IMG/VR virus record: IMGVR_UViG_3300030099_004693
Span: 1-50,786 of that record
Reading direction: 5' to 3' (one strand)
Origin: a virus
Lineage: Duplodnaviria; Caudoviricetes
Length of the DNA stretch: 50,786 nt
Every line of letters begins with the position of its first letter. Position 1 is the stretch's first letter. Both the position numbers and the translations under genes were made by a program. Below, in pieces: positions 8,099 through 31,272 of the stretch. Under the pieces are notes generated by a model that saw only the letters and a program-made list of their open reading frames with translations, was not told the DNA's origin and made no database searches.

Positions 8099-8652
8099 TA
8101 AACCATAGTATCTAAAAAAGCACTTTGATACCCAGGATTTACTATATCATCCATAAAAGATTCATCAGGCGTTTCATCTAAATAAAACTGCGATTGTTTT
8201 ATAAAATGCTCTTCTGTTCCTTTGCCAGCTTTAGTATTCCAATTTTGTTTCCAATAATTAGCTTGCCCTTCTAAATCTTCGGGTATTGCAGAAGGAATAT
8301 TTAATAATCCCATTCTTGTTAATGCAGCTGATATATATGGATTATGGTTTTCTTGAGATAAGTCTAAATTTAAAATATCAAAATCAGGTCTATTTAATTT
8401 ATCCTGCAAATACTGATTAGCAATTTGAACTCTTTTAGCTCCTTCAGGGCCCGTAGCTCTTTGAACAATATCTTTATATTTAATGGGGTCAATTTGCGAA
8501 GCTCCAAAAGAATATCCTCCCATTTTATCCATACCAAGATTGCTTTCTGTTGCAGCTACATTTTTCATAAACTGACCTACATCACTATATCCTGCATCAG
8601 AGTACAATTGATTAATCTCTTGTATTGCTTCTAATGTTTTTTCTTTAGACAT
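8098..8652 (-). CDS. Lysozyme-like/lytic transglycosylase-like protein (endolysin candidate)
   Basis: AATESNLG (catalytic-Glu-like ES), FGASQI (G..Q), ANYWKQNWNT..GKG. Confidence 0.55.
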   Translation of the reverse strand: MSKEKTLEAIQEINQLYSDAGYSDVGQFMKNVAATESNLGMDKMGGYSFGASQIDPIKYKDIVQRATGPEGAKRVQIANQYLQDKLNRPDFDILNLDLSQENHNPYISAALTRMGLLNIPSAIPEDLEGQANYWKQNWNTKAGKGTEEHFIKQSQFYLDETPDESFMDDIVNPGYQSAFLDTMV

Positions 8653-8969
8653 TACTTACTCATTGACCTAGCACGCTCTTTACCGCAGTTGCAGTTCCAT
8701 TTACGCAATGCTTTGTTTATTCTGCTGTTTGGGTCGTTAGCCGTCTTCGCTCCCGTTAGTCTACGCTTCATTCCACACATTCTAGCACAGAAAGAACTTC
8801 TTCTTTTAGCAGATTTACTGCCTTTCTTTAACTTACTTGGCTTTGTGGTAACAGCCATCTTTAGCTTAGAACCAGGGTTTGCGGCTCTATACGACGCAAT
8901 ACCCTTTCTGTTTAAGCCACCAGATTTACTCTTACCCGCTTTACGTTGCCATGCTGGTGTTTTTGCCAT
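8652..8969 (-). CDS. Small basic conserved phage protein (DUF6321-like)
   Basis: GGLNRKG...NPGSKLK...RRSSFCARM...DPNSRINKALRKWNC pattern recalled from marine phages. Confidence 0.7.
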   Translation of the reverse strand: MAKTPAWQRKAGKSKSGGLNRKGIASYRAANPGSKLKMAVTTKPSKLKKGSKSAKRRSSFCARMCGMKRRLTGAKTANDPNSRINKALRKWNCNCGKERARSMSK

Positions 8970-8974
8970 ATTAC

Positions 8975-9103
8975 CTACTTATTGTATTTTCTAATTTTTT
9001 TTATCTTACCATTGTGGGTTCTAGCAAACTTATGTGTTTTAGTTTCTCTAATGAGAGTACCATAATAACGTTTGCCACCCCACATCCAACTAACTTTTGC
9101 CAT
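8975..9103 (-). CDS. 42-aa small basic protein (not in ORF track)
   Basis: MAKVSWMWGGKRYYGTLIRETKTHKFARTHNGKIKKIRKYNK; TAATG coupling to the upstream gene. Confidence 0.75.
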   Translation of the reverse strand: MAKVSWMWGGKRYYGTLIRETKTHKFARTHNGKIKKIRKYNK

Positions 9104-9281: not shown

Positions 9282-9578
9282 TTAATACACTTTAGAGGAT
9301 TTCTTAGTCACAGCGTCTCTATTACTTGCTTTTTTTAACATTTTTCTATCTACAGCTCCTTTTCCAGCCATAGCTCCCATATTAGCACCAGCTTTATACA
9401 TTGGACCTCGTGCTGCAGCTTTTTTTAGTCCACTTCTTGCTACTCCACTAGCGCCTATTCCTTTACCAGCAGCAAATCCACCTACTCTTCCTGCTGCTTT
9501 ACCTGCTTCTGCTACTTTTTTTGCAGCTGCTTTACCTTTTTTTGTATATGGAAACTTTTTCCCGCCTACATCTGGCAT
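9282..9578 (-). CDS. Small K/A/G-rich basic protein
   Basis: MPDVGGKKFPYTKKGKAAAKK N-terminus; AGGAGG RBS. Confidence 0.8.
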   Translation of the reverse strand: MPDVGGKKFPYTKKGKAAAKKVAEAGKAAGRVGGFAAGKGIGASGVARSGLKKAAARGPMYKAGANMGAMAGKGAVDRKMLKKASNRDAVTKKSSKVY

Positions 9579-9602
9579 AATTACCTCCTACGTTAAGTTT
9601 TA

Positions 9603-9956
9603 TTAAATTTCAATATCCTGTGGTTCTCTAAATTTTCGTGGTAGTGTTCTGTAATCTGGAACATCTTCTTCAAGAAATCGAGGTGTGGGCCTTCTATTTT
9701 TAAATGGTTTATCGCCAAACGCCCTATCTATCTCTCTAAACGTCTTTCTAGTAAAAAAATCTACCTTAGGCTTACGTTTAAATTGTTTTAATCCAAGTTT
9801 TTTTTGTTCAGCATTTATATTTAGGAATGCTTTCTTAATATCCTGGTTTTTAAAGCCTAATTGCTGAGCTATCTTAACTCCTCTAGATACTCCATGCTTC
9901 TGTAATAACCTTATAAGAACCTTTGCTATACTTGCTACTGCCATTTTATACTCCAA
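9603..9956 (-). CDS. Basic hypothetical protein, first gene of the leftward block
   Basis: GGAG RBS suggests a start at MAVAS (9944). Confidence 0.7.
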   Translation of the reverse strand: MEYKMAVASIAKVLIRLLQKHGVSRGVKIAQQLGFKNQDIKKAFLNINAEQKKLGLKQFKRKPKVDFFTRKTFREIDRAFGDKPFKNRRPTPRFLEEDVPDYRTLPRKFREPQDIEI

Positions 9957-10010
9957 TTTGGTAGATAACTTAAATAATAAACAGATTCATTTCCAAGAAC
10001 TAAATTTTAC

Positions 10011-10121
10011 CTACTACTAGTAGTACTACTAGTACTTACATACGTTTATCTGTTAATACTAAGTATTATATGTTACCAATCTCACTACTACTAGTACTAC
10101 TATTAGTACTACTACGTAGTA
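10011..10121. repeat. CTACTAGTA/TAGTACTA palindromic direct-repeat cluster
   Basis: CTACTACTAGTA occurs at 10011 and 10085, with several overlapping ACTAGT and AGTACT palindromes; A-tracts follow at 10121-10170. Confidence 0.7.
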
Positions 10122-10198
10122 AAATAAGAAAGTTTAGAAAAAATGCAAGAAAAAAATTTTCAAAAAATTTTCTGTAGAATGGATGCACGTGATATACC

Positions 10199-10597
10199 AT
10201 CTATGCCACGGGGTTGATTTACGGGTCGTGGGGGTCAACTTTCGTTGAAACTTGTATTTGTGTTGCCCCCAGCACGACCATCACTCATAATCTCAACCAA
10301 CTAGCTGTATACTACAAATACTTGCTGTTTGTTTAGGCATTTGTGCTTGTGCTTGTGGTTGGTTGAGAGTTATTCATTGCGTACAATCGTATTGTATTAT
10401 ACCTTTTTACTACACATACTGGTATAATACAACTTGTTGTGTCAACCCTCGCTTTACTTATATCAAGCCTAATATTCGCTGTTTTACACTACCTTTATTA
10501 CTACTCTAATCACTACCATCGGTAGTGTAAAAGTATGCTAGCATACCACGAATATTAGTTTGATATAAGTATGCGCTCGTTGTCCCTAGGCATAGAT
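10199..10597 (+). ncRNA. Candidate ~400-nt multi-domain structured RNA (or ssDNA) element
   Basis: Nested stems 10199-207/10589-597, 10210-218/10441-449, 10224-230/10273-279, 10291-303/10356-368, 10392-403/10421-432, 10456-466/10560-570, 10469-478/10549-558, 10482-493/10521-532; most non-Watson-Crick positions within arms are G-U on the + strand. Confidence 0.55.
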
Positions 10598-10648
10598 TTT
10601 TTTCCTCTTCTAGTAGGTGATAATTTTAAATTTACAAAGGAGAAAGAT

Positions 10649-10984
10649 ATGTTAAGCTTACAAGAAATAGTAACCAATTTAAAATTTACTGATACTATGA
10701 ACCAGCTACTATCAAAGATAGTAGCACCAGATGCAGTATCAGTAATACCCTCAAAGAGCAAGAAAGGCGTTGAGGGTATTAAGATTTACGGCATTCAATG
10801 CTTTAACAAAGCTCAGCTGATGAAAGATGAAGACTTTTCAGCATTGAATGACGCAATCAAAGCATCATCTAACCATAGTCTGCTTGTACGTCACGATGAT
10901 GCGTATGAAACGCCTATGGTTTGGATTGGCCCAGGCTCTACTAATAGCCAATCCAAAGAAGATAAGCAGGCCCTGTTTGCTTAG
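10649..10984 (+). CDS. First early gene, hypothetical
   Basis: ORF 10571-10984; AAGGAG RBS supports a start at 10649. Confidence 0.75.
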   Translation: MLSLQEIVTNLKFTDTMNQLLSKIVAPDAVSVIPSKSKKGVEGIKIYGIQCFNKAQLMKDEDFSALNDAIKASSNHSLLVRHDDAYETPMVWIGPGSTNSQSKEDKQALFA

Positions 10985-10989
10985 TCTTC

Positions 10990-11010
10990 AAGGGAACTTA
11001 CGTTCCCTTT
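10990..11010 (+). terminator. Hairpin/possible terminator
   Basis: AAGGGAAC-TTAC-GTTCCCTT just after the stop codon; U tail is short. Confidence 0.5.
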
Positions 11011-11027
11011 AAACGTTAATGTATAAT

Positions 11028-11093
11028 TGGTGGTGGCAAAAGCTCAAGTGTTGTTACTAGTCCTTTCACTACTTGGACGAGTAGCCACCACTA
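11028..11093 (+). promoter_or_regulatory. Intergenic stem-loop before RBS
   Basis: TGGTGGTGGC/GCCACCACTA closing stem (one G-U). Confidence 0.5.
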
Positions 11094-11109
11094 CAACTGT
11101 GAGGTAAAT

Positions 11110-11250
11110 ATGAATAAATTTAAAATAGTAAACTTATTAAATGGTGCAGTAACAGTAGTAGTAGCTAAGTCTTATGTATCAGCACTTAAACGCGGTAGAA
11201 GATACTTTAGTGAGCCAAATAGAACTAAAGTACCAGTGCAGGTAATATAG
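11110..11250 (+). CDS. 46-aa hypothetical protein (not in ORF track)
   Basis: GAGG RBS; MNKFKIVNLLNGAVTVVVAKSYVSALKRGRRYFSEPNRTKVPVQVI. Confidence 0.7.
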   Translation: MNKFKIVNLLNGAVTVVVAKSYVSALKRGRRYFSEPNRTKVPVQVI

Positions 11251-22619: not shown

Positions 22620-22869
22620 CTCAGGGCAGAAAGAATACGCTCATGATGAAGATAATGTATTTGCTAACTTCGAAAGAGTAGCAGAATCCTGCAATATATC
22701 CAGAGAACAAGCTCTTTGGGTATATGCATCAAAACACTTTGATGGAATATCTGCTTATGTTAAAGGATATAAAAGTCAAAGAGAAGATGTACGTGGTAGA
22801 TTAACAGACCTTACAGTATACTTATGGTTGTTGTGGGGTATGATAGAAGAATCAGAAAGTAAGTCCTGA
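22549..22869 (+). CDS. All-alpha nucleotide-modification-associated/MazG-like-fold protein
   Basis: KEYA...VFANFERVA...KH...RL.DL..Y pattern. Confidence 0.45.
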   Translation: MMKHKEMKNLMEKKILPQITKTRDSGQKEYAHDEDNVFANFERVAESCNISREQALWVYASKHFDGISAYVKGYKSQREDVRGRLTDLTVYLWLLWGMIEESESKS

Positions 22870-25800
22870 CCCAGGTGTTGGGACTTTTCTTTCTTCACCT
22901 TCTCTTAATTCTTTGGACGCTCTACTTAATCCTATTAATGGTATGCCTGTCCATTTATCTACAAGTGACATTGGGTTTTCTATTAAATTGTTTTGAGCAA
23001 CAAAATCTCTAGATATTCTTCCAAATGGATACATAGTGTGTATGTAATAGTTAGCTACTCGTTCCCAATCATCTTCTAATACAGCTCTCATAGATGCCAT
23101 TGGCAGTCTTGCTATTGGTGGAGTAATTAGTTGTAATGGTGCAATTGGCTGTGGCCATTGCCCAAAAAATGCTCTTTTCTTATCTTTTTCATCACCAAAC
23201 AACCATTCACTAGTATCCTGCATCCAGTTCCATGGCGATGGCATTGCAGTATCAAATAATGAATATGCAAAAGCATTACCTAATGAAAATACAAATAGGT
23301 CTAATTGCATTATTCTTGCCACACGTTCTGCTTCTTTACCTTTAAAACCATATAATCTAGCTTGTCTTAATGCTTCTCTTCTAAAACGTATAGCATTCCA
23401 GCCCCAAAGCTGGAAACGTGTCATTACTTTACCTAATGCTGTTCTAGCAAACATAGGTCTAAATGGAGCAGAATATAAAAACTGAGTAGATTTAACTCCT
23501 TTCTTAGCTAAATCTATTAATATAGGGTGGTCAAACTCTCTAATAGCACCATTGAATTTTTTATACCAAAATAAATAATGTGCCATAAATGCATCTCTTC
23601 TTAATGCTCTTTCTGGTACAGACATAAACTTAGCTGCTAATTCTGTAACAGGTCTTGTGATACCCTTTTCTTTACCTAAATCTAAAACAGATTCACTAGA
23701 TAAATTAGGGTCACGTTTAAGTTTACGTGCAACAAGTTCAATAAACTCTTTATTACGAGATGATTGATATTCTGTTGCTAAACCATATTCCTCAAGTAAT
23801 TGCTCAGGCAATACGCCTTGTTTAATTACAAACGCTTCTCTAGCTTCTTTAGATGCAAACTTATCACTAAGTGCAGCCATATATTTATTGTTTCTAGCAT
23901 CCATCCAAGTCTTCATACCAACAGATTGTACAGTATGCATAGTACCACCAAAAATATTAGCAACAACAGACTTAGGATGTGCTAATAACGATGCTAACTC
24001 AAACTTAGCTTCTAGGTTACTCCAGTTACGTACATCATTTAAATCTAAACCTCTAAGTTCTTCAGGTAATTCTTTCTTAATTAATCCTAATTTGTCTCCT
24101 ATTTTATTAAGTCTATCTTTAACTCTATTATCAGCCCACCATCCATAAGGTGTACCTTTTATTTTCATGTTAGGATTTTCATAAACATACTCAGGGACAA
24201 CATCAGGATTGCCTATAGCGCCTTGCACATAAAGTTTTAAGAATGTAGACCACGATTCTTTAATGTTTTCTGGTACTTTTCTATCAAACATTGACTGTTC
24301 AAACTTAGATATAGTATCTCTTGCAAGTATTTGAGCCCATTGTTTGTAATATGTATTGTTTAAACTTTTACCATAGCCTGTGGGAACCTGTATGTCTAAT
24401 GAATATCCAGGTATATGACCTTCTCTACTAAGCTGAGAACCAGTTTTCTTTATATCTTGCAACCAACTTATACGTTCTTCTTTTTTTTGTTTACGTTTGC
24501 CTATATTTTCTAAACTTTTATTAAATCCTTCCCAAGTATTAATAGCTTCAAACATATAATCACCAGTTAATGCGTGATGTCTGTATGTTAATTTAGTTAT
24601 TAACTTATCTTGTTCTTTAGCATCTAAACTGCTTTTGCGTATATATTTTACATATTCTTTAAGTGCGTTAAGTGCGGTTTTTTTACTAAAATGATTATGT
24701 GGAAAATACATTTCTTCTGATATTCTACCAGTTCTAGATGGAAATGTTTCATACATTTTTTTCAATTCTTTTTTCTTTAGTTTTTTAGTATTAGTAGCTA
24801 TTTCATATTTCATTGACCTAGCTATAGTATTTATACCATCAATACCAAATTCTGTCGGTATTTTTTTGTTTTTAGCTACAGCTCTATTAAAATCGTTTAC
24901 AAGTTTTTCAAAGTTAATAATTGGATTTTGTTTAGTTTTAGGGTCGTAAAATCCTTTAACGTAGCCACTATTTTTAGGACCAGATGTAAATCCAGGAATA
25001 CCAAACTCTATAGCTTTTTGTAATGCATATAATGGTTGACCATCTGCAGTTGTTCCTATTACTTTTAAATTACCAGAAGAATCTTTAGGAACATTACCTT
25101 GTGCAATCTCTAATTCTTTTTTATAATATGCTGTTTCTTTATTGTTAATAATATCAACAATTTCAGAACCCTTTAACTTTTGCAGTTTTTTATCTATTTC
25201 AACAGTATAAACTTTATCTTTTAAATCAGTTTCGTATTTATGTTTTTTAGTAATTTCATTAAAAGCATCTGTATATGTCTTAGCGTGAAACATAGCAAGA
25301 GGTTTATCTTTTTTACTTACATCTGTTAAAATCTTTTCTGCCATAGGAAGTTCTCGTTTAACCATAGCTACTTCCCATAATTGTTTGCCTTCAGGTATAG
25401 CATCTAAAAACGTATATTCTTTTACTCGTTCTAAAGATAACTGTTCATTGGCTGCATCTGCTGCATCTAACACGCTTTTAATTCTATATTGAGTAATGTC
25501 TATGTACTGAGTAGGTAATATAGACTTACCAGTCTTCATACCTTCTGCTGTCATAAATATACCTTTCTTTTGCATCAGAACAATTTCATCTCGCATTAAT
25601 TCTTTATTAATAGTTTCAGGAAACTGTAAATATGTACGCTGTGATACTTTACTAATATCTTCACCTTTTAATCGTTGCCAAAAAGTACCAGTCTTAGTAT
25701 CTCTAAGCCAATTGCGAAGTACCATCCAGTCCTGTTTATTAAATATATTTATATCTTTGCCTACAACTTCACGTGCAATAAATCCAATGTTTTGTACTAC

Positions 25801-28800
25801 TTTATTGTTTTCTGTTTTTAAGTCCATTACAATGTCATCAATATAACCCTTAGTCTCAGCATCTAGTTTAGTTTTACCTTTAGCTTCTTTAACGCCTTCC
25901 CATCCAGTAGTAAATACTTCTGTTAGTTTAGCATCAGATTCCTCAGGCCACCCTTTTTCAATGCTTTCTTTTTTAGTAGGTTCTTCTAATAGTATAGTTC
26001 CTTCTCTTCGTATTTGTTCTGGTGCACGATGAGTAGATACTTCGTTGTATGTATTGTTTATTTCACCTAAAAACTTTCCAATAGAATTAGTTTCCATAGC
26101 TTCGCTGTTGTATCCCAACATAGATGATGACGTTCTTGCTGTATTTGTAAGCTCTGTATCATAGTCTTTTTGTTCCTTATTAGTTAAAGGTCTTTCTAGT
26201 TTAATTGCGTTTAGTTCTGCTAACTTTTCAAGATTACCACGATTCAATGAACCTAACATTAATGTATCAAACAATCTTTTTTCTATGTCAGTTCTATTAC
26301 GTTTCCATTTTCTTATCTCTGCATCAATAGCATTTTGGTCTTTAATCGATGAACCTTTAGACTTTCTTTGTCTACCAATATTTAGTTCAGTATCTAAACT
26401 ATTTCTATCATCTCTCATTAGATACGATTCTGCTTTTAATTTTTCTACTGTAGTATGCGCATCTTCTATCATTGCATTTACTTCAGCTTTTGTAATACCA
26501 GGAACTCTTTTCTTTACAACATCTATAATTTTTACAAGCTCTTGTACAGTCACCATTGTTTGTATATCTCTACCAGAAAAATCACCAGCTTGTTCTTTTA
26601 ATCGTTCTAATACAGCAATGCGTTCTTGTTCTGTGTAAAGTTTATTTTTTGCCTTTTTAAATGTAGCAAACTTAGTTCCTTTTATAACATCGTAAAACGT
26701 AGCTTTGTTTTTAGCAGCTGCAACTAATGCATCAGGGTTTAATAAATTGTATTTATACACTTTATTAATAATTGTAGGAGTAGGTGTTTTTAATGTTCTT
26801 CTTCCTAACATACCTTTTAAAGAACTATACTCAGCTACACTTTTGTTGTAGTTATTATATAAATCTGTTATTCTATCAAATTTTACTCTATTTAATGCGT
26901 GGTCAGAATAGTCTATATTATGTAACAGTCTAGCTATTTTAGGCGTCATAGTAGTAATATTCTTTGGGTCTTCAGCCATAAGTTCTGCTGTAAGATTCTT
27001 TCTGTCTTCCATAGTATATTGACGTTGATTTGTATAATCTTTGCCGTAGTATGCATTATTAGCTTTACTTAACATACCAATAACACCATTTTTATTAAAC
27101 TCTGAAACATTCAACTTAGCTAATGGCACTTTTGATTTAACAATAAAGTGAGCCTCTAATGCTTGTTTATACCAATTCTCATAGCCTTTAGGCTTACCAT
27201 AATCCATTGCATCTGATGAAAAACCAACCATAGCACGCATTAGTTTATTTGCGTAATCTATTTCTTGAGGTTTAGTTTTAGGGATAAGAGTTACTTTTAT
27301 ATCTTTACCAAAATGTTTAACAGTAAACTCGTCTTTACCTTTATTAAGTATCATTTGATATGCAGATGCCATAATGTTTTTAGGATTAACAGCAGCTCCA
27401 CCAAGAAGTCCTCTACCTTCTACAGCACCTTCTGATGCTTGATGTCGCATATTAGGCGCAAACATACCAGCCTGACTTTTAAATAACGCGTCTTCTCTTG
27501 GACTATATTCTTGTATAAGCTTTTTCTCAAATTCTTTAGCTTTGTTATCAGCTATTTTAAACCTACCATCTTTCTGTTTAACATAGAACTCTTGTTCTTG
27601 AGCTTCCATTACATCTTTATATTCTTTCTTTAAACCACCCTTACCACCAAAGTACATATACGCAGAATCAATATCAAGGTCAGCACCACCTAACGCTCTC
27701 ATCTTTAACCCATGCATTAGTATGCCATAGTCATTTCTTCCAGTAAACCCAGCAAACTGCAATATTTGTGTACCAGAGTTAGAATCTGCTGGAACTCTTA
27801 TAACTGCAGTCCTAAAAACCTCTTCTAGCCGTTTTTTAGCCGATTCTGGAGTACTTTTACTTAAGTACGTGCTATAGAGCTCTTCGAGTGTTTTCTTTCC
27901 ATATAGCTCTGTTTCAATAACTTTCTTTTTATGTTTGTCTCCAAGGAAAAATATTTTAGAATTTGTATTTAATTCTTTTAACCTAGGATTAACACCATCT
28001 AAATCTTTCTGTAATCCTTCATCATATGGTCTAATAATAGCTGCAGCAGAGTTTTTAACCTTTGGTTTAGTAACAGAGTTTACTATCCAACTAGACATCA
28101 TTTTATCTCTGTATTTGTTTATATCTGGATGCGTAAATATATTAGCTTCATTCTCTGGTTTACCACGTTTAATAGCGTCTTTACGTGCAGCTGCTATCAT
28201 TTTTTGTGCAACAGAATGGTAATACTCAACTTCCCTATTGTTTGCATCGTATTCTGCTTCTGTCATTACACCTTCGGCATACTCTTCTCTTATAGCAGAC
28301 TTTCTATTTAACAATAGATAGTTATAAAATGCCTTAGAAAACAATTGATTACCAGGTTGTTTCATAGCATCTGTTATACGTTCTAACCCAATAGCATCAA
28401 AATCTAGCTTATCTAGTTCTTTAGCTAATTGTTTATCTGATGCTGTAGGTAGTTTTTCTAAGTACGCATCTAATGCTTCATTAGCTTTTGCATCACCTTT
28501 AATACGTGGCTCCATAAAATCTTTAAATATACCATCAACTGCTTCTTTGACAGTAAAGCCATCTTTAGATGCTTTTTGAAATGCCATAGCTTCTACTAAA
28601 TTAGTAAGCATTTGTTTTTTAATACTCTGCGGTGCAATAAACTTTTTACTTTGCTTTATGCCTAAATCTTGTTTAATATGCGTAGGGTCTAAATCATATA
28701 CTTCATAAAACTCTCTTGTACCTTTTTGTTTAACAGCAGATGCCATAATATTCATATGTATACCAGCATCTTTCATTTCTGCTGATAACTTAGGTCCTGC

Positions 28801-31272
28801 TGGATGTATTGCATATTTACCAAGCAATGCACCGTGCTCAGCATTAGGCGATACTATTAATGATTTATTAGTACCAGATTCAGGCGTACCTTTTTCTAAA
28901 TTTAAAGCTCGTACAACATCATCTCTAGCTATAATAGCACCATCAAGATGTTCTTCTGTTTTAGTAGACTCTATGTCTGAAAACTTAGCAGCTTCTTTCA
29001 TTTTATCTTGTAATCGTTTAGGTAAGTTTTGACCAAAATCAGGTATAATATTATATCTAAAATTACCTTCTACTAAATCAGCTATGTGCCCAGGGCTTTG
29101 TTTGTTAGTAAAAAACTCTTTTTCAGCAGAATATGCATCTGTCATTAATAATGGCAGTCTTTTATTAAATGCTATTGCATTCTTTAAAAACCCATCGCCT
29201 TGCATTTTTTTAATATTAGCAGGTGTAAACTCTAAACCATTCATTTCTAACTGCCATAATACGTTAGATGCAAACCCTCTATCAAACTCAGCTTGAGTTA
29301 AATTGTATTTTTTCTTAAAATCATTTCTAAGCGCACGAATATCTGATGCTTTAAATTGAGATATAATAGTTCGCATGTTACCAGCTGTATTGCTTTTAGG
29401 ATGATGTTTCATAAAGTATAGTCTGTCTGCAGTACCTTTACCACCAAAATAACTATAACCTTTTTTATTCATTTCTTTTATAGTGCCGCCTACTAAATTA
29501 TAGTAATCTTTTGCACCACCATACTCTGCATACTCCATCTGTTTAAGTTTTTGTAATGATATTTCACGTTGACCATTTTCACCTTCTACAACTATATGGT
29601 CAAGAAACGTATGTGCACGTTCATCTTTGCCAGTTAACTTTTTCCATATTTGGTCAGCTATTTTTAATGGCTCTGTTAATATTTTTTTATTACCTGCTAA
29701 ATTCTTAGCATTCTGCTCTGTTAAAAAGTATATATTAGTACCATCTGTCGTAAGTACTTCTGTAACCTTATCGTTTTTATATCGAGTAATAAACTGTCTT
29801 ATATCACCTTCTGTACGCAATACTCTTTCTGGGTCTTTATTAGAATTTTTAATTTGATATTTATAGTCTTCTTGTAGCATTTCTTGTATTTTTCTAAATG
29901 CATCAGATGACTCGTTAGTCTTGGGACCTCTAACGTATTTGTCTAGTATATTAGACATTTTAGTTGTTATCTCAGCTGTCTGGTCTAATCTTTCTTGAGA
30001 TGTAATTTCTTTACCTTTAAAAAAATCAGGCATATCAAACCTAACTATGTTTTGAGCTTTATTGCCTATCTTTGGGTCTATAGTAGGTTCTACGCCTACA
30101 TTACTTTCTTCTGTGCTACCAGTCTCAAATACTTCTTTTTCTTTCTCTACTATCTTAGTAGGCTCAGTTTTAACCTCTACTTTAGGTACACCCTCTTGCT
30201 CTAATAATTTTTCTGTTTCTATATTTAATTGTTTTTGTAATTCATTGGCAGCTGTTCGTTGCACCTGTTCTTCTACAGTTCCTCTAGTTTGATTAAACTG
30301 AGTAATTACTTCTTTTTGTACTTCAGGCGGTAATTTACTAAACTCAGGATGTCTAGCAGGGTCATATATTTCAACCAATGCTTCGTTACCAGGTTTTTGT
30401 GCATCTTTTTCATATTTTTGTGAAAACTTTTGTGCTTTAGCTACAGTCCATGGTCGTTCTTGTCCTCCAAACCAAGCACCCATAACATATTCATAAACTT
30501 GCTCAGGTGTAGTTGCACCTCTCATAGTAGCAGGTAATCCCATAAACAATGAACCTGCTAATGTTTTAGCTACTTTATTACCAGCTTCACTTCCAGTATT
30601 AACAAAGTTACCTATACTTCTAAATACACCACCAGCTTGCGCGCCACCTACAAATGCAGCCATCATTTCATCGACACCACCTTGCCAAGCTGATGCTGCT
30701 GATGCTGCTCCTAAATGAAATGCACCTTCAGCTATATGTCTAGCTCTTTCACCTAATATAAAATTACTAGCAGTTCTTACTGCATCATTTTTAGCCAGTC
30801 TACCTTGATTTAAAAATGGTTTAACAATTTTTTTTGTTTGTTTAGTTGCAAAATTAGCCACAGCCATAGGAACAGACTTGTTGTTTAATGAACGAGCAGT
30901 ATTAGCTGCTGTCATAAGAGATGTAGTTTTAAGTCCTAACTTAGCAGATACTTTAGCAGCAGCACCTAATGGCGCTCCTATAATACCAGGTGCAAACCCA
31001 GCTAAATGACCTAGGTTTTTAAAAATTGCTTCGTATTCGTTGTCTGGAGTGTCGCCTACTTTTAATGTAGTAAAACCTTCTATAAACCCCGAGCCAAGGT
31101 CTGTTAATGCATCAGATATACTAAATTCACCGCTATAAAAAGGTATGTTGTGATAATCAGCGTGTTGCTGTATTGTGTCTTTGAGGTTTGCATAAGCGTC
31201 TGGATTCTTTTTATAAGAATCAATTAATGTTCTTACAGTACGCTCATCCAATCGTGGTTGGAACTCAGCCAT
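22852..31272 (-). CDS. Giant ejection protein with double-psi-beta-barrel (crAss-like) virion RNA polymerase
   Basis: RVP...FAGF...GGA-D1198-L-D-I-D1202 catalytic-like loop; upstream LLGKY and S845-AVK; Gly/Ala-rich N-terminus; last gene of the ejection cluster. Confidence 0.75.
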   Translation of the reverse strand: MAEFQPRLDERTVRTLIDSYKKNPDAYANLKDTIQQHADYHNIPFYSGEFSISDALTDLGSGFIEGFTTLKVGDTPDNEYEAIFKNLGHLAGFAPGIIGAPLGAAAKVSAKLGLKTTSLMTAANTARSLNNKSVPMAVANFATKQTKKIVKPFLNQGRLAKNDAVRTASNFILGERARHIAEGAFHLGAASAASAWQGGVDEMMAAFVGGAQAGGVFRSIGNFVNTGSEAGNKVAKTLAGSLFMGLPATMRGATTPEQVYEYVMGAWFGGQERPWTVAKAQKFSQKYEKDAQKPGNEALVEIYDPARHPEFSKLPPEVQKEVITQFNQTRGTVEEQVQRTAANELQKQLNIETEKLLEQEGVPKVEVKTEPTKIVEKEKEVFETGSTEESNVGVEPTIDPKIGNKAQNIVRFDMPDFFKGKEITSQERLDQTAEITTKMSNILDKYVRGPKTNESSDAFRKIQEMLQEDYKYQIKNSNKDPERVLRTEGDIRQFITRYKNDKVTEVLTTDGTNIYFLTEQNAKNLAGNKKILTEPLKIADQIWKKLTGKDERAHTFLDHIVVEGENGQREISLQKLKQMEYAEYGGAKDYYNLVGGTIKEMNKKGYSYFGGKGTADRLYFMKHHPKSNTAGNMRTIISQFKASDIRALRNDFKKKYNLTQAEFDRGFASNVLWQLEMNGLEFTPANIKKMQGDGFLKNAIAFNKRLPLLMTDAYSAEKEFFTNKQSPGHIADLVEGNFRYNIIPDFGQNLPKRLQDKMKEAAKFSDIESTKTEEHLDGAIIARDDVVRALNLEKGTPESGTNKSLIVSPNAEHGALLGKYAIHPAGPKLSAEMKDAGIHMNIMASAVKQKGTREFYEVYDLDPTHIKQDLGIKQSKKFIAPQSIKKQMLTNLVEAMAFQKASKDGFTVKEAVDGIFKDFMEPRIKGDAKANEALDAYLEKLPTASDKQLAKELDKLDFDAIGLERITDAMKQPGNQLFSKAFYNYLLLNRKSAIREEYAEGVMTEAEYDANNREVEYYHSVAQKMIAAARKDAIKRGKPENEANIFTHPDINKYRDKMMSSWIVNSVTKPKVKNSAAAIIRPYDEGLQKDLDGVNPRLKELNTNSKIFFLGDKHKKKVIETELYGKKTLEELYSTYLSKSTPESAKKRLEEVFRTAVIRVPADSNSGTQILQFAGFTGRNDYGILMHGLKMRALGGADLDIDSAYMYFGGKGGLKKEYKDVMEAQEQEFYVKQKDGRFKIADNKAKEFEKKLIQEYSPREDALFKSQAGMFAPNMRHQASEGAVEGRGLLGGAAVNPKNIMASAYQMILNKGKDEFTVKHFGKDIKVTLIPKTKPQEIDYANKLMRAMVGFSSDAMDYGKPKGYENWYKQALEAHFIVKSKVPLAKLNVSEFNKNGVIGMLSKANNAYYGKDYTNQRQYTMEDRKNLTAELMAEDPKNITTMTPKIARLLHNIDYSDHALNRVKFDRITDLYNNYNKSVAEYSSLKGMLGRRTLKTPTPTIINKVYKYNLLNPDALVAAAKNKATFYDVIKGTKFATFKKAKNKLYTEQERIAVLERLKEQAGDFSGRDIQTMVTVQELVKIIDVVKKRVPGITKAEVNAMIEDAHTTVEKLKAESYLMRDDRNSLDTELNIGRQRKSKGSSIKDQNAIDAEIRKWKRNRTDIEKRLFDTLMLGSLNRGNLEKLAELNAIKLERPLTNKEQKDYDTELTNTARTSSSMLGYNSEAMETNSIGKFLGEINNTYNEVSTHRAPEQIRREGTILLEEPTKKESIEKGWPEESDAKLTEVFTTGWEGVKEAKGKTKLDAETKGYIDDIVMDLKTENNKVVQNIGFIAREVVGKDINIFNKQDWMVLRNWLRDTKTGTFWQRLKGEDISKVSQRTYLQFPETINKELMRDEIVLMQKKGIFMTAEGMKTGKSILPTQYIDITQYRIKSVLDAADAANEQLSLERVKEYTFLDAIPEGKQLWEVAMVKRELPMAEKILTDVSKKDKPLAMFHAKTYTDAFNEITKKHKYETDLKDKVYTVEIDKKLQKLKGSEIVDIINNKETAYYKKELEIAQGNVPKDSSGNLKVIGTTADGQPLYALQKAIEFGIPGFTSGPKNSGYVKGFYDPKTKQNPIINFEKLVNDFNRAVAKNKKIPTEFGIDGINTIARSMKYEIATNTKKLKKKELKKMYETFPSRTGRISEEMYFPHNHFSKKTALNALKEYVKYIRKSSLDAKEQDKLITKLTYRHHALTGDYMFEAINTWEGFNKSLENIGKRKQKKEERISWLQDIKKTGSQLSREGHIPGYSLDIQVPTGYGKSLNNTYYKQWAQILARDTISKFEQSMFDRKVPENIKESWSTFLKLYVQGAIGNPDVVPEYVYENPNMKIKGTPYGWWADNRVKDRLNKIGDKLGLIKKELPEELRGLDLNDVRNWSNLEAKFELASLLAHPKSVVANIFGGTMHTVQSVGMKTWMDARNNKYMAALSDKFASKEAREAFVIKQGVLPEQLLEEYGLATEYQSSRNKEFIELVARKLKRDPNLSSESVLDLGKEKGITRPVTELAAKFMSVPERALRRDAFMAHYLFWYKKFNGAIREFDHPILIDLAKKGVKSTQFLYSAPFRPMFARTALGKVMTRFQLWGWNAIRFRREALRQARLYGFKGKEAERVARIMQLDLFVFSLGNAFAYSLFDTAMPSPWNWMQDTSEWLFGDEKDKKRAFFGQWPQPIAPLQLITPPIARLPMASMRAVLEDDWERVANYYIHTMYPFGRISRDFVAQNNLIENPMSLVDKWTGIPLIGLSRASKELREGEERKVPTPGSGLTF

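Follow-up and report, generated by a model that had tools for sequence, protein, structure and literature searches.

Here we describe an element of around 400 nucleotides (nt) at positions 10199–10597 of the IMG/VR virus record IMGVR_UViG_3300030099_004693, the genome of a member of the Caudoviricetes. The window that we analysed is the whole record (50,786 bp, linear and 99% complete according to CheckV). We conclude that 10199–10597 is a real and conserved structured non-coding element, apparently undescribed so far, at the head of the phage early operon. It is densely folded, occurs once in its own genome and lies directly ahead of the first gene (open reading frame 1, ORF1) of the rightward block; its stems show compensating changes in relatives, whole hairpins are gained and lost as modules, and its loops are biased towards one strand. 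It may be the structured 5′ leader RNA of the first (pre-early) transcription unit of the phage, a reading that we put forward tentatively and rate at somewhat less than even.

The element was singled out in a reading of the letters alone (the sequence-only reading), which described an outer stem enclosing two multibranch domains and suggested either an undescribed structured RNA or leader, or a single-stranded DNA fold read by a virion RNA polymerase. An inverted-repeat search and a minimum free energy (MFE) fold recovered every stem in that description at the positions it gave. These are the outer stem (P1) and the stem that closes domain 1 (P2), both listed in Table 1; the perfect 12-bp stem of hairpin H3 (10392–10403/10421–10432); the three nested stems of domain 2 (10455–10466/10560–10571, 10469–10478/10549–10558 and 10482–10493/10521–10532); and the palindrome GTATGCTAGCATAC. 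Folding is far beyond chance: the plus strand of 10199–10597 has an MFE of −138.7 kcal/mol, against −89.8 kcal/mol (standard deviation 5.2) for shuffled sequences (z = −9.42; 0 of 100 shuffles as good), and the minus strand reaches −136.7 kcal/mol (z = −9.38; again 0 of 100). Among 504 genome segments of 400 nt, 10201–10600 stands out most in folding energy once GC content is corrected for (z = −4.3), and the segments 10701–11100 and 10601–11000 rank second and third in structure. A proposed loop–loop pairing, GTATTTGT/ACAAATAC, exists in the window and is absent from all 10 representatives outside the near-identical group (12 were examined), in which the best complement is no better than in shuffles.

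The element has one copy in the genome and resembles nothing catalogued in the collections searched. No Rfam 15 family reached its gathering threshold anywhere in the window, the best sub-threshold match being a microRNA precursor model (E = 0.57; 24.7 bits against a gathering score of 140), and ARAGORN found no transfer RNA or transfer-messenger RNA genes in the window. A blastn search with 9900–10700 against 50,697 phage records returned no match. The element sits in a 700-bp divergent gap that separates a minus-strand gene block from a plus-strand block, and ends 51 nt before the ATG at 10649, close to the 50 nt estimated by the sequence-only reading.

Table 1 Features of the locus, in window positions
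Feature	Position	Strand	Remarks
(AG)TACTAC repeat array, direct and inverted	10005–10125	.	Candidate operator or iteron sites; kept in relatives
A/T-rich tract (A-runs on the plus strand)	10120–10172	.	Between array and M1; UP-element-like or easily melted; kept in relatives
M1, TGTAGAATGGATGCACGTGATATACC	10172–10198	+	Unique conserved 26-nt motif adjoining the outer stem on its 5′ side; putative promoter and start region
P1 5′ arm, ATCTATGCC	10199–10207	+	Pairs with 10589–10597
P2 5′ arm, GGGGTTGAT	10210–10218	+	From the fold
H1 hairpin	10222–10279	+	Covarying base stem, conserved G5/C5 stem, loop GTTGAA at 10244–10249
H2 long imperfect hairpin	10287–10373	+	ACTAC unit near the tip (10310)
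H3, perfect 12-bp stem with 17-nt loop	10392–10432	+	Loop 15-mer TTTTACTACACATAC at 10405–10419
P2 3′ arm, GTCAACCCT	10441–10449	+	Closes domain 1
Domain 2, optional 137-nt near-perfect hairpin module	10447–10583	+	Three nested stems
P1 3′ arm, GGCATAGAT	10589–10597	+	T6 directly after it in this genome
M2, CCTCTTCTA	10604–10612	+	Conserved; 2–7 nt after the P1 3′ arm
Ribosome site AGGAG	10638–10642	+	Ahead of ORF1
ORF1, 111 amino acids	10649–10984	+	First gene of the plus-strand block; conserved family-wide
Hairpin AAGGGAAC-TTAC-GTTCCCTT	10990–11009	+	Just 3′ of ORF1; T-run follows in relatives; intrinsic-terminator-like

Relatives were gathered through ORF1 (5 loci), through the terminase (80 loci, 67–99% identity), with an M1 pattern in viral contigs (20 contigs) and with a looser M1 pattern in metagenomes, which gave at least 120 stretches; a motif filter kept 32 of these, among them 24 distinct new ones. 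The phage family is uncultured and marine: the nearest cultured phage has a terminase (TerL) that is only about 27% identical, and the sequencing runs are labelled marine metagenome. All members share one order: TACTAC-type repeats, an A/T-rich tract, M1, a variable arm of 7–10 nt, a G-run with a GTTGAA stretch, a variable region, M2, a ribosome site and ORF1. In the closer clade, with a terminase identity of at least around 83%, the element is 249–693 nt in length and keeps the architecture seen in the window.

Pairing is maintained in this clade while the sequence changes. P1 was present in all 22 sequences that were anchored on M1 and M2, in around 12 distinct arm sequences (174 Watson–Crick, 4 G–U and 5 A–C pairs), starting 22–27 nt after the start of M1 and ending 2–7 nt before M2; two arms taken from one sequence match each other better than arms exchanged between sequences (0 of 5,000 permutations, in which kinship was ignored). 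Of 16 long forms, 13 have a clear P2 partner where one is expected, with up to 14 perfect pairs (0 of 5,000 permutations) and with arm variants such as GTGGTTGAATTTAG/CTAAATTCAACCAC and GGGCGAAAATCA/TGATTTTCGCCC; P2 is weak or ambiguous in L022, L023 and L035. The base stem of H1 varies in step (GGTCGT/ACGACC, GGGCGT/ACGCCC and GGCTGT/ACAGCC; 0 of 5,000 permutations, with a crude, ungapped detection). These anchored-arm permutation tests were used for pair counts instead of a MAFFT alignment of whole elements, because the alignment misplaced the 3′ arms in 5 of 18 rows. The 131 pairs of the window fold were projected on the aligned sequences of 6 close relatives, which make 5 distinct rows; here 97.3% of cells were paired. 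Seven of the 131 pairs changed on both sides—five of the nine pairs of P1, one in H1 and one in domain 2 (C–G to U–A)—which none of 500 shuffles reached, and no pair changed on one side only.

Between these stems, the hairpins turn over as units. L003 and L004 cleanly lack domain 2, which L002, L005 and L006 carry; a 20-nt probe from this domain matches 3 viral contigs, in the same context only, and other relatives carry different, larger hairpins at the domain 2 position or inside H3. The 15-mer in the H3 loop, the sole exact copy in the window, is kept in long forms; it is unpaired in the window and paired with an inverted copy in several other genomes. The sequence of H2 is unrelated across subgroups, yet it is always a long hairpin. 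Three independent contigs (L019, L018/L104 and L033/L101) end in this variable H2 region, 157–191 nt after the start of M1, and their ends resemble the breaks that assembly leaves where sequence is hypervariable or rich in hairpins.

The position of the element is an argument for a leader. With up to 3 mismatches allowed, M1 occurs only once in the window (0 expected). All 6 close relatives carry it unchanged, including L005 and L006, whose upstream sequence is unrelated, and it recurs in 20 viral contigs and in further metagenome contigs. It is the only family-wide conserved motif upstream of ORF1, and the element lies between M1 and the ORF1 ribosome site. We infer that M1 is the promoter of the first unit, with TAGAAT and GATATAC as −10-like sequences. 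A sigma-70 scan of 9500–11200 found no consensus site at M1; by eye, TAGAAT (10175–10180) matches five of the six positions of a −10 hexamer, with a TG before it and A/T-rich sequence upstream, and without a −35 element. A sigma-54 reading of M1 was rejected because its GG is not conserved. In distant relatives, with only around 90–280 nt between M1 and the start of ORF1, a second promoter would hardly fit. Because M1 is single and invariant, a terminator-like hairpin follows ORF1 and a further site precedes the next gene, M1, the element and ORF1 appear to form a first transcription unit of their own.

That further site belongs to a set. TG followed by TAnnAT is common to TGTAGAAT in M1 (10172–10179), TGTATTAT in H3 (10393–10400), which is −10-like, and TGTATAAT (11021–11028), which lies 3′ of the ORF1 hairpin and before the second gene (ATG at 11110). 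The 11 nt that follow the M1 and H3 sites are alike (ACGTGATATAC and ACTACACATAC), so H3 may, from these letters, hold a duplicated start module; a third related unit lies in H2. Between TGTATAAT and the second gene there is a conserved GGTGGTGG...CCACCAC hairpin with CACTAC in its loop; the ORF1 hairpin, TGTATAAT and this hairpin together lie in 10990–11095. The ORF1 hairpin itself was not listed by a terminator consensus scan in this window, where its tail is weak.

The covarying arms of P1 and P2 lie 270–700 nt apart, so their pairing needs a fully single-stranded molecule; a plus-strand RNA is the simplest such molecule because the element sits between M1 and ORF1. As a leader, the element would act as nascent plus-strand RNA within a unit made of M1 as the start signal, the multi-hairpin domain closed by P1, M2, the ribosome site, ORF1 and the terminator-like hairpin. 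P1 and P2 would tie the ends of the RNA together, and H1–H3 with the optional domain 2 would leave almost no unstructured stretch. Such a fold would protect the first message against nucleases and Rho, and would display pyrimidine-rich ACUAC loops and the invariant GUUGAA to some factor; template switching between the arms probably helps to keep them perfect. Both the rightward transcription of the region and a function for the fold are, in our account, what we infer from this arrangement.

Four smaller proposals for this stretch were set aside. A short leader ORF (from the ATG at 10203 to the TGA in GTTGA) has no ribosome site, and L033 and L034 do not keep its frame. Pairing of TAGAA in M1 with TTCTA in M2 would join two invariant segments, so covariation is uninformative, and M2 differs in distant relatives. 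M2 is also a poor complement of the ribosome site that it might mask. The fourth is the sigma-54 site already mentioned.

Several observations weigh against a leader RNA, and the first concerns its reach. Compensating changes hold in the closer clade, but no helix forms a consensus across the family. In distant members the first 75 nt give a nearly gap-free alignment, in which the spacing of M1, two Cs, a T and GTTGAA is constant; GTTGAA, in the H1 loop, is invariant across the family, and GTT is invariant in alignments A4 (31 sequences) and A6 (35 sequences). RNAalifold returned no consensus pairs for the 5′ 125 nt of 31 mixed members or for the 5′ 110 nt of 35 short forms. A helix proposed by hand (columns 34–38/47–51) reached only 57% paired cells and did not outperform slid controls, and many short forms lack P1 above chance in an ORF1-anchored segment, which also missed P1 in several long forms with longer spacers. 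What the whole family conserves is therefore a module of primary sequence at fixed spacing, on which one clade has elaborated the large fold. P1, P2 and H1 covary only within the long-form clade, unlike the helices of a riboswitch-like class, which would covary in consistent columns throughout a family.

The second concerns the strand. The sequence-only reading held that most non-Watson–Crick positions were G–U on the plus strand; we find no clear bias of this kind, because the plus fold has 11 G–U pairs and the minus fold 8 (which are A–C when read on the plus strand). Among 17 representatives the better MFE falls on the plus strand in 8 and on the minus strand in 9, and ensemble diversity is split 9 to 8; four relatives fold 12–38 kcal/mol better on the minus strand. 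In 13 non-redundant sequences there are around 82 G–U pairs in plus folds and around 96 in minus folds. No steps from G–C to G–U are seen, as no pair among the close relatives changes on one side only. With 12–34 near-perfect pairs, the stems are closer in appearance to DNA palindromes than to a typical riboregulator. The stems carry no strand signal; the unpaired bases do. Unpaired plus-strand bases total 549 T, 354 C, 260 A and 129 G (17 representatives), and ACTAC occurs 40 times on the plus strand and 7 times on the minus strand (12 representatives). Structured RNAs usually have purine-rich loops, whereas the plus-strand loops here are pyrimidine-rich and G-poor, and it is on the minus strand that they are purine-rich. 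Composition also groups the element with the leftward genes: a negative AT skew persists through the element to around 10600 before it turns positive, with a positive peak at 10075–10224 over the A/T-rich tract. Transcript data add nothing in favour: two metatranscriptome runs from the same sample gave one 74-nt piece at 9018–9091 and none on the element, which is uninformative on expression, and the region is in none of the listed RNA runs. The suggestion of a structured RNA or leader therefore stands as far as folding beyond chance, conservation and a leader-like position are concerned, whereas folding energy, ensemble definition and the balance of G–U and A–C pairs favour neither strand.

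Known phage early leaders offer the nearest comparison for a leader RNA. They include the lambda pL-nutL-N leader with its RNase III hairpin, the put RNAs of HK022, the T7 early leader with RNase III site R0.3 and the CI RNA leader of P4. As in these, a non-coding stretch of hairpins would directly follow the earliest promoter and precede the first gene of the early block, with a terminator-like hairpin later; given that hairpin, read-through could be regulated here too. Unlike them, the element is large (250–700 nt, compared with around 70–220 nt) and modular, has no sequence or Rfam match, and has stems without a strand signal. GOLLD and ROOL are large ornate non-coding RNAs of phages and prophages, and the element shares their size class, phage context and many helices; it differs in that no Rfam match was found in the window, the helices are long and near-perfect, few junction bases are conserved and the fold is clade-specific. 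A separate small-RNA gene would have its own terminator: T6 follows P1 in the window, but most of the 22 anchored relatives have a broken T-run or none, and no terminators were listed in 9500–11200. A partial precedent, by analogy, comes from the crAss-like phage phi14:2, for which a report describes two long intergenic regions that produce abundant early non-coding RNAs of unknown function (10.1101/2020.03.07.982082). Phage phi14:2 resembles our phage in combining a giant two-barrel polymerase with long non-coding regions near the early genes, and differs in that its RNAs were seen by RNA sequencing, whereas the element is known from sequence alone; host and phage family differ as well.

The symmetry of the stems also fits a replication origin. 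The element would then act as DNA, with TACTAC iterons, an A/T melting tract and hairpins on both unwound strands for priming or helicase loading, or with an R-loop zone fed by M1. Parallels are the RSF1010 oriV with its ssiA/ssiB hairpins, the promoter-plus-unwinding origins of T4 and T7, and ColE1. We regard an origin as possible but unlikely. Both strands fold equally well and the G–U and A–C counts are balanced, as expected if both strands or a duplex palindrome matter. The site is single-copy, and a repeat array and an A/T-rich tract lie directly upstream: the array (10005–10125) is dense in AGTACTAC and TACTAGTA repeats in both orientations, with six TACTAC in 120 bp. Nine of the 24 TACTAC copies of the genome fall within 9950–10650, where 0.33 would be expected by length: the six of the array and those near the tips of H2, H3 and domain 2. 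From its repeats, the array is a candidate operator or iteron set for a putative DNA-binding protein. G-runs (G4, G3 and G5) follow M1 on the non-template strand, and the conserved GGGGGTC contains GGGTC, the recognition site of the T7 primase. The locus lies at the strand and skew switch, beside replication genes: the plus-strand block (10649 to around 22143) includes genes for a Sak4-like annealing protein and a primase-helicase. T4 origins are described as acting through promoter-derived R-loops (PMC3016281). Against an origin, the skew switch is confounded with transcription direction, the hairpin domain lies inside an apparent transcription unit rather than beside it, the loops are strongly strand-biased, and no initiator protein was recognised by PHROGs and Pfam among the 10 neighbouring ORFs, for which these searches returned nothing informative.

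Alternatively, the palindromes may have grown by template switching in a tolerant leader, with arms homogenised by mutation and only the core from M1 to GTTGAA functional. As a full account of the element this seems to us quite unlikely, although much fits it: the large fold is restricted to one clade, the conserved core is primary sequence at fixed spacing, whole hairpins come and go at element lengths of 249–693 nt, and the stems are long, near-perfect and strand-symmetric, with two-sided changes and no one-sided intermediates. Template switching between inverted-repeat arms is reported to homogenise and expand the arms and to invert spacers (PMC8604942, PMC13100816 and PMC7202029, as far as these sources describe it). 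A motif inversion between two relatives has the pattern expected of such a spacer inversion: the first GTTGAAATT-type motif after P1 is inverted in L044 (1687–1796, TCAATTTCAAC) relative to L047 (1410–1519). What argues against a mere by-product is that P1 and P2 stay fixed beside M1 and M2 through around 12 sequence states and at separations of 270–700 nt, for which local template switching is a poor explanation; that the H3 15-mer and the ACTAC units are conserved and strand-specific; and that folding is extreme even within this genome. Template switching may well act alongside any of the other readings.

The remaining possibility, a scaffold for a virion RNA polymerase, gains interest from the gene content of the phage. 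A 2,806-amino-acid ORF in the structural block (22852–31272, minus strand) contains GGADLDID at residue 1198, a motif that is conserved as GGADLDGD in 32 aligned homologues, with three invariant aspartates and an RVPMDS block upstream (RVPMDS...GGADLDGD); more than 100 homologues of 1,558–3,876 amino acids occur in metagenomes. Residues 1000–1500 were modelled with a predicted local distance difference test score (pLDDT) of 82. Among the 50 Foldseek matches listed for this polymerase core, almost all are bacterial beta′ chains (best E = 7e-4, with a template modelling score of only around 0.2), and all 50 rows from VIA-align are largest subunits of two-barrel polymerases (Z = 9.0–10.6), including those of phages PhiKZ, AR9 and P74. 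The double-psi beta-barrel core and the NADFDGD-type aspartate triad that define two-barrel RNA polymerases are thus found in this ORF, in its motif and its model. Because of the conserved motif and the fold matches to two-barrel largest subunits, the phage probably carries a crAss-type giant polymerase, possibly virion-borne, in a marine phage genome of around 51 kb. A literature search on two-barrel polymerases in marine phages yielded nothing on this phage family.

Such a polymerase, injected with the DNA, could use hairpins extruded from the entering supercoiled genome, with single-stranded ACTAC loops and the H3 15-mer as start sites. We hold this to be very unlikely, and place it last among the readings considered. 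In its favour are the core of the giant ORF, which matches only two-barrel largest subunits, and the conserved strand-specific motifs at the tips of H2, H3 and domain 2. However, loops of 17–27 nt between the arms make cruciform extrusion unfavourable on general grounds, pyrimidine-rich plus-strand loops used as template would yield leftward rather than early-gene transcripts, the motifs are single-copy, distant relatives with the same polymerase family lack the large fold, and packaging of the polymerase in the virion is presumed. Phage phi14:2 is reported to inject its two-barrel polymerase; the crAss-like enzyme gp66 is described in the same source as efficient on single-stranded or denatured templates but poor at transcribing double-stranded DNA, and the early transcripts of phi14:2, within that source's account of them, share no common upstream motif (10.1101/2020.03.07.982082). 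The P23-45 virion polymerase is described as transcribing pre-early genes next to the entering end (10.1101/2022.12.01.518664). Both accounts lend support to a polymerase scaffold.

Other folded single-stranded DNA signals resemble the element in that structure is conserved more than sequence, conserved tip bases are asymmetric and the signal lies on the DNA that acts first. They include the hairpin promoters of the N4 virion polymerase, the sso and ssiA/ssiB priming hairpins, integron attC sites and the Frpo/ssi signals of conjugative plasmids. Unlike the element, which is found in a double-stranded DNA phage, all of these act on DNA that is biologically single-stranded, and we know of no process that would unwind the whole 400 nt in this phage. 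N4 promoters have a stem of 5–7 bp and a 3-nt loop, occur in several copies ahead of early genes and serve a T7-like polymerase; the element is far larger, with stems of 9–34 bp, loops of 4–27 nt, a single copy each of M1 and the H3 15-mer and a two-barrel polymerase in the genome (no search was aimed at a T7-like one), so the N4 analogy drawn by the sequence-only reading is poor, while a scaffold for a two-barrel virion polymerase keeps the small probability given above. A mobile palindrome, of the miniature inverted-repeat transposable element or repetitive extragenic palindromic kind, is at odds with the one genome copy, with a domain 2 probe found in the same context only and with the lack of a match in the phage collection. 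For Frpo/ssi of conjugative plasmids, a report describes folded single-stranded DNA signals (PMC11541004).

The minus-strand block next to the element runs from 9944 down to 1 and includes genes for the large terminase, the portal and the major head protein; the rest of the minus strand carries tail genes and two giant ORFs. No relative of the product of the adjacent minus-strand gene (9603–9944) was found among viral contigs. A 105-amino-acid ORF nearby (8652–8969, minus strand) is a stand-alone DUF6321 domain (Pfam, E = 6e-17) that matches, in PHROGs, the C-terminal ends of much longer phage proteins. On the other side, ORF1 is conserved across the whole family at 12–95% identity; its AlphaFold2 model, of middling confidence (pLDDT 72), predicts an alpha/beta fold for which Foldseek gave no match at E ≤ 0.001. 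Its position is like that of first-expressed host-takeover or anti-defence genes.

If the element is a leader RNA, it would be among the largest and most modular early-gene leaders known in phage, in a family that is abundant, uncultured and marine. If it acts as folded DNA, the choice of start sites by injected, single-strand-preferring two-barrel polymerases would become testable, as would the start of replication in a phage with only a primase-helicase; a polymerase scaffold, if true, would explain how crAss-type polymerases with motif-less early promoters find their starts. The locus is a natural experiment in which long-range stems hold through around 12 sequence states while whole hairpins are gained and lost, and in this family selection for pairing can therefore be separated from the mutational homogenisation of palindromes.

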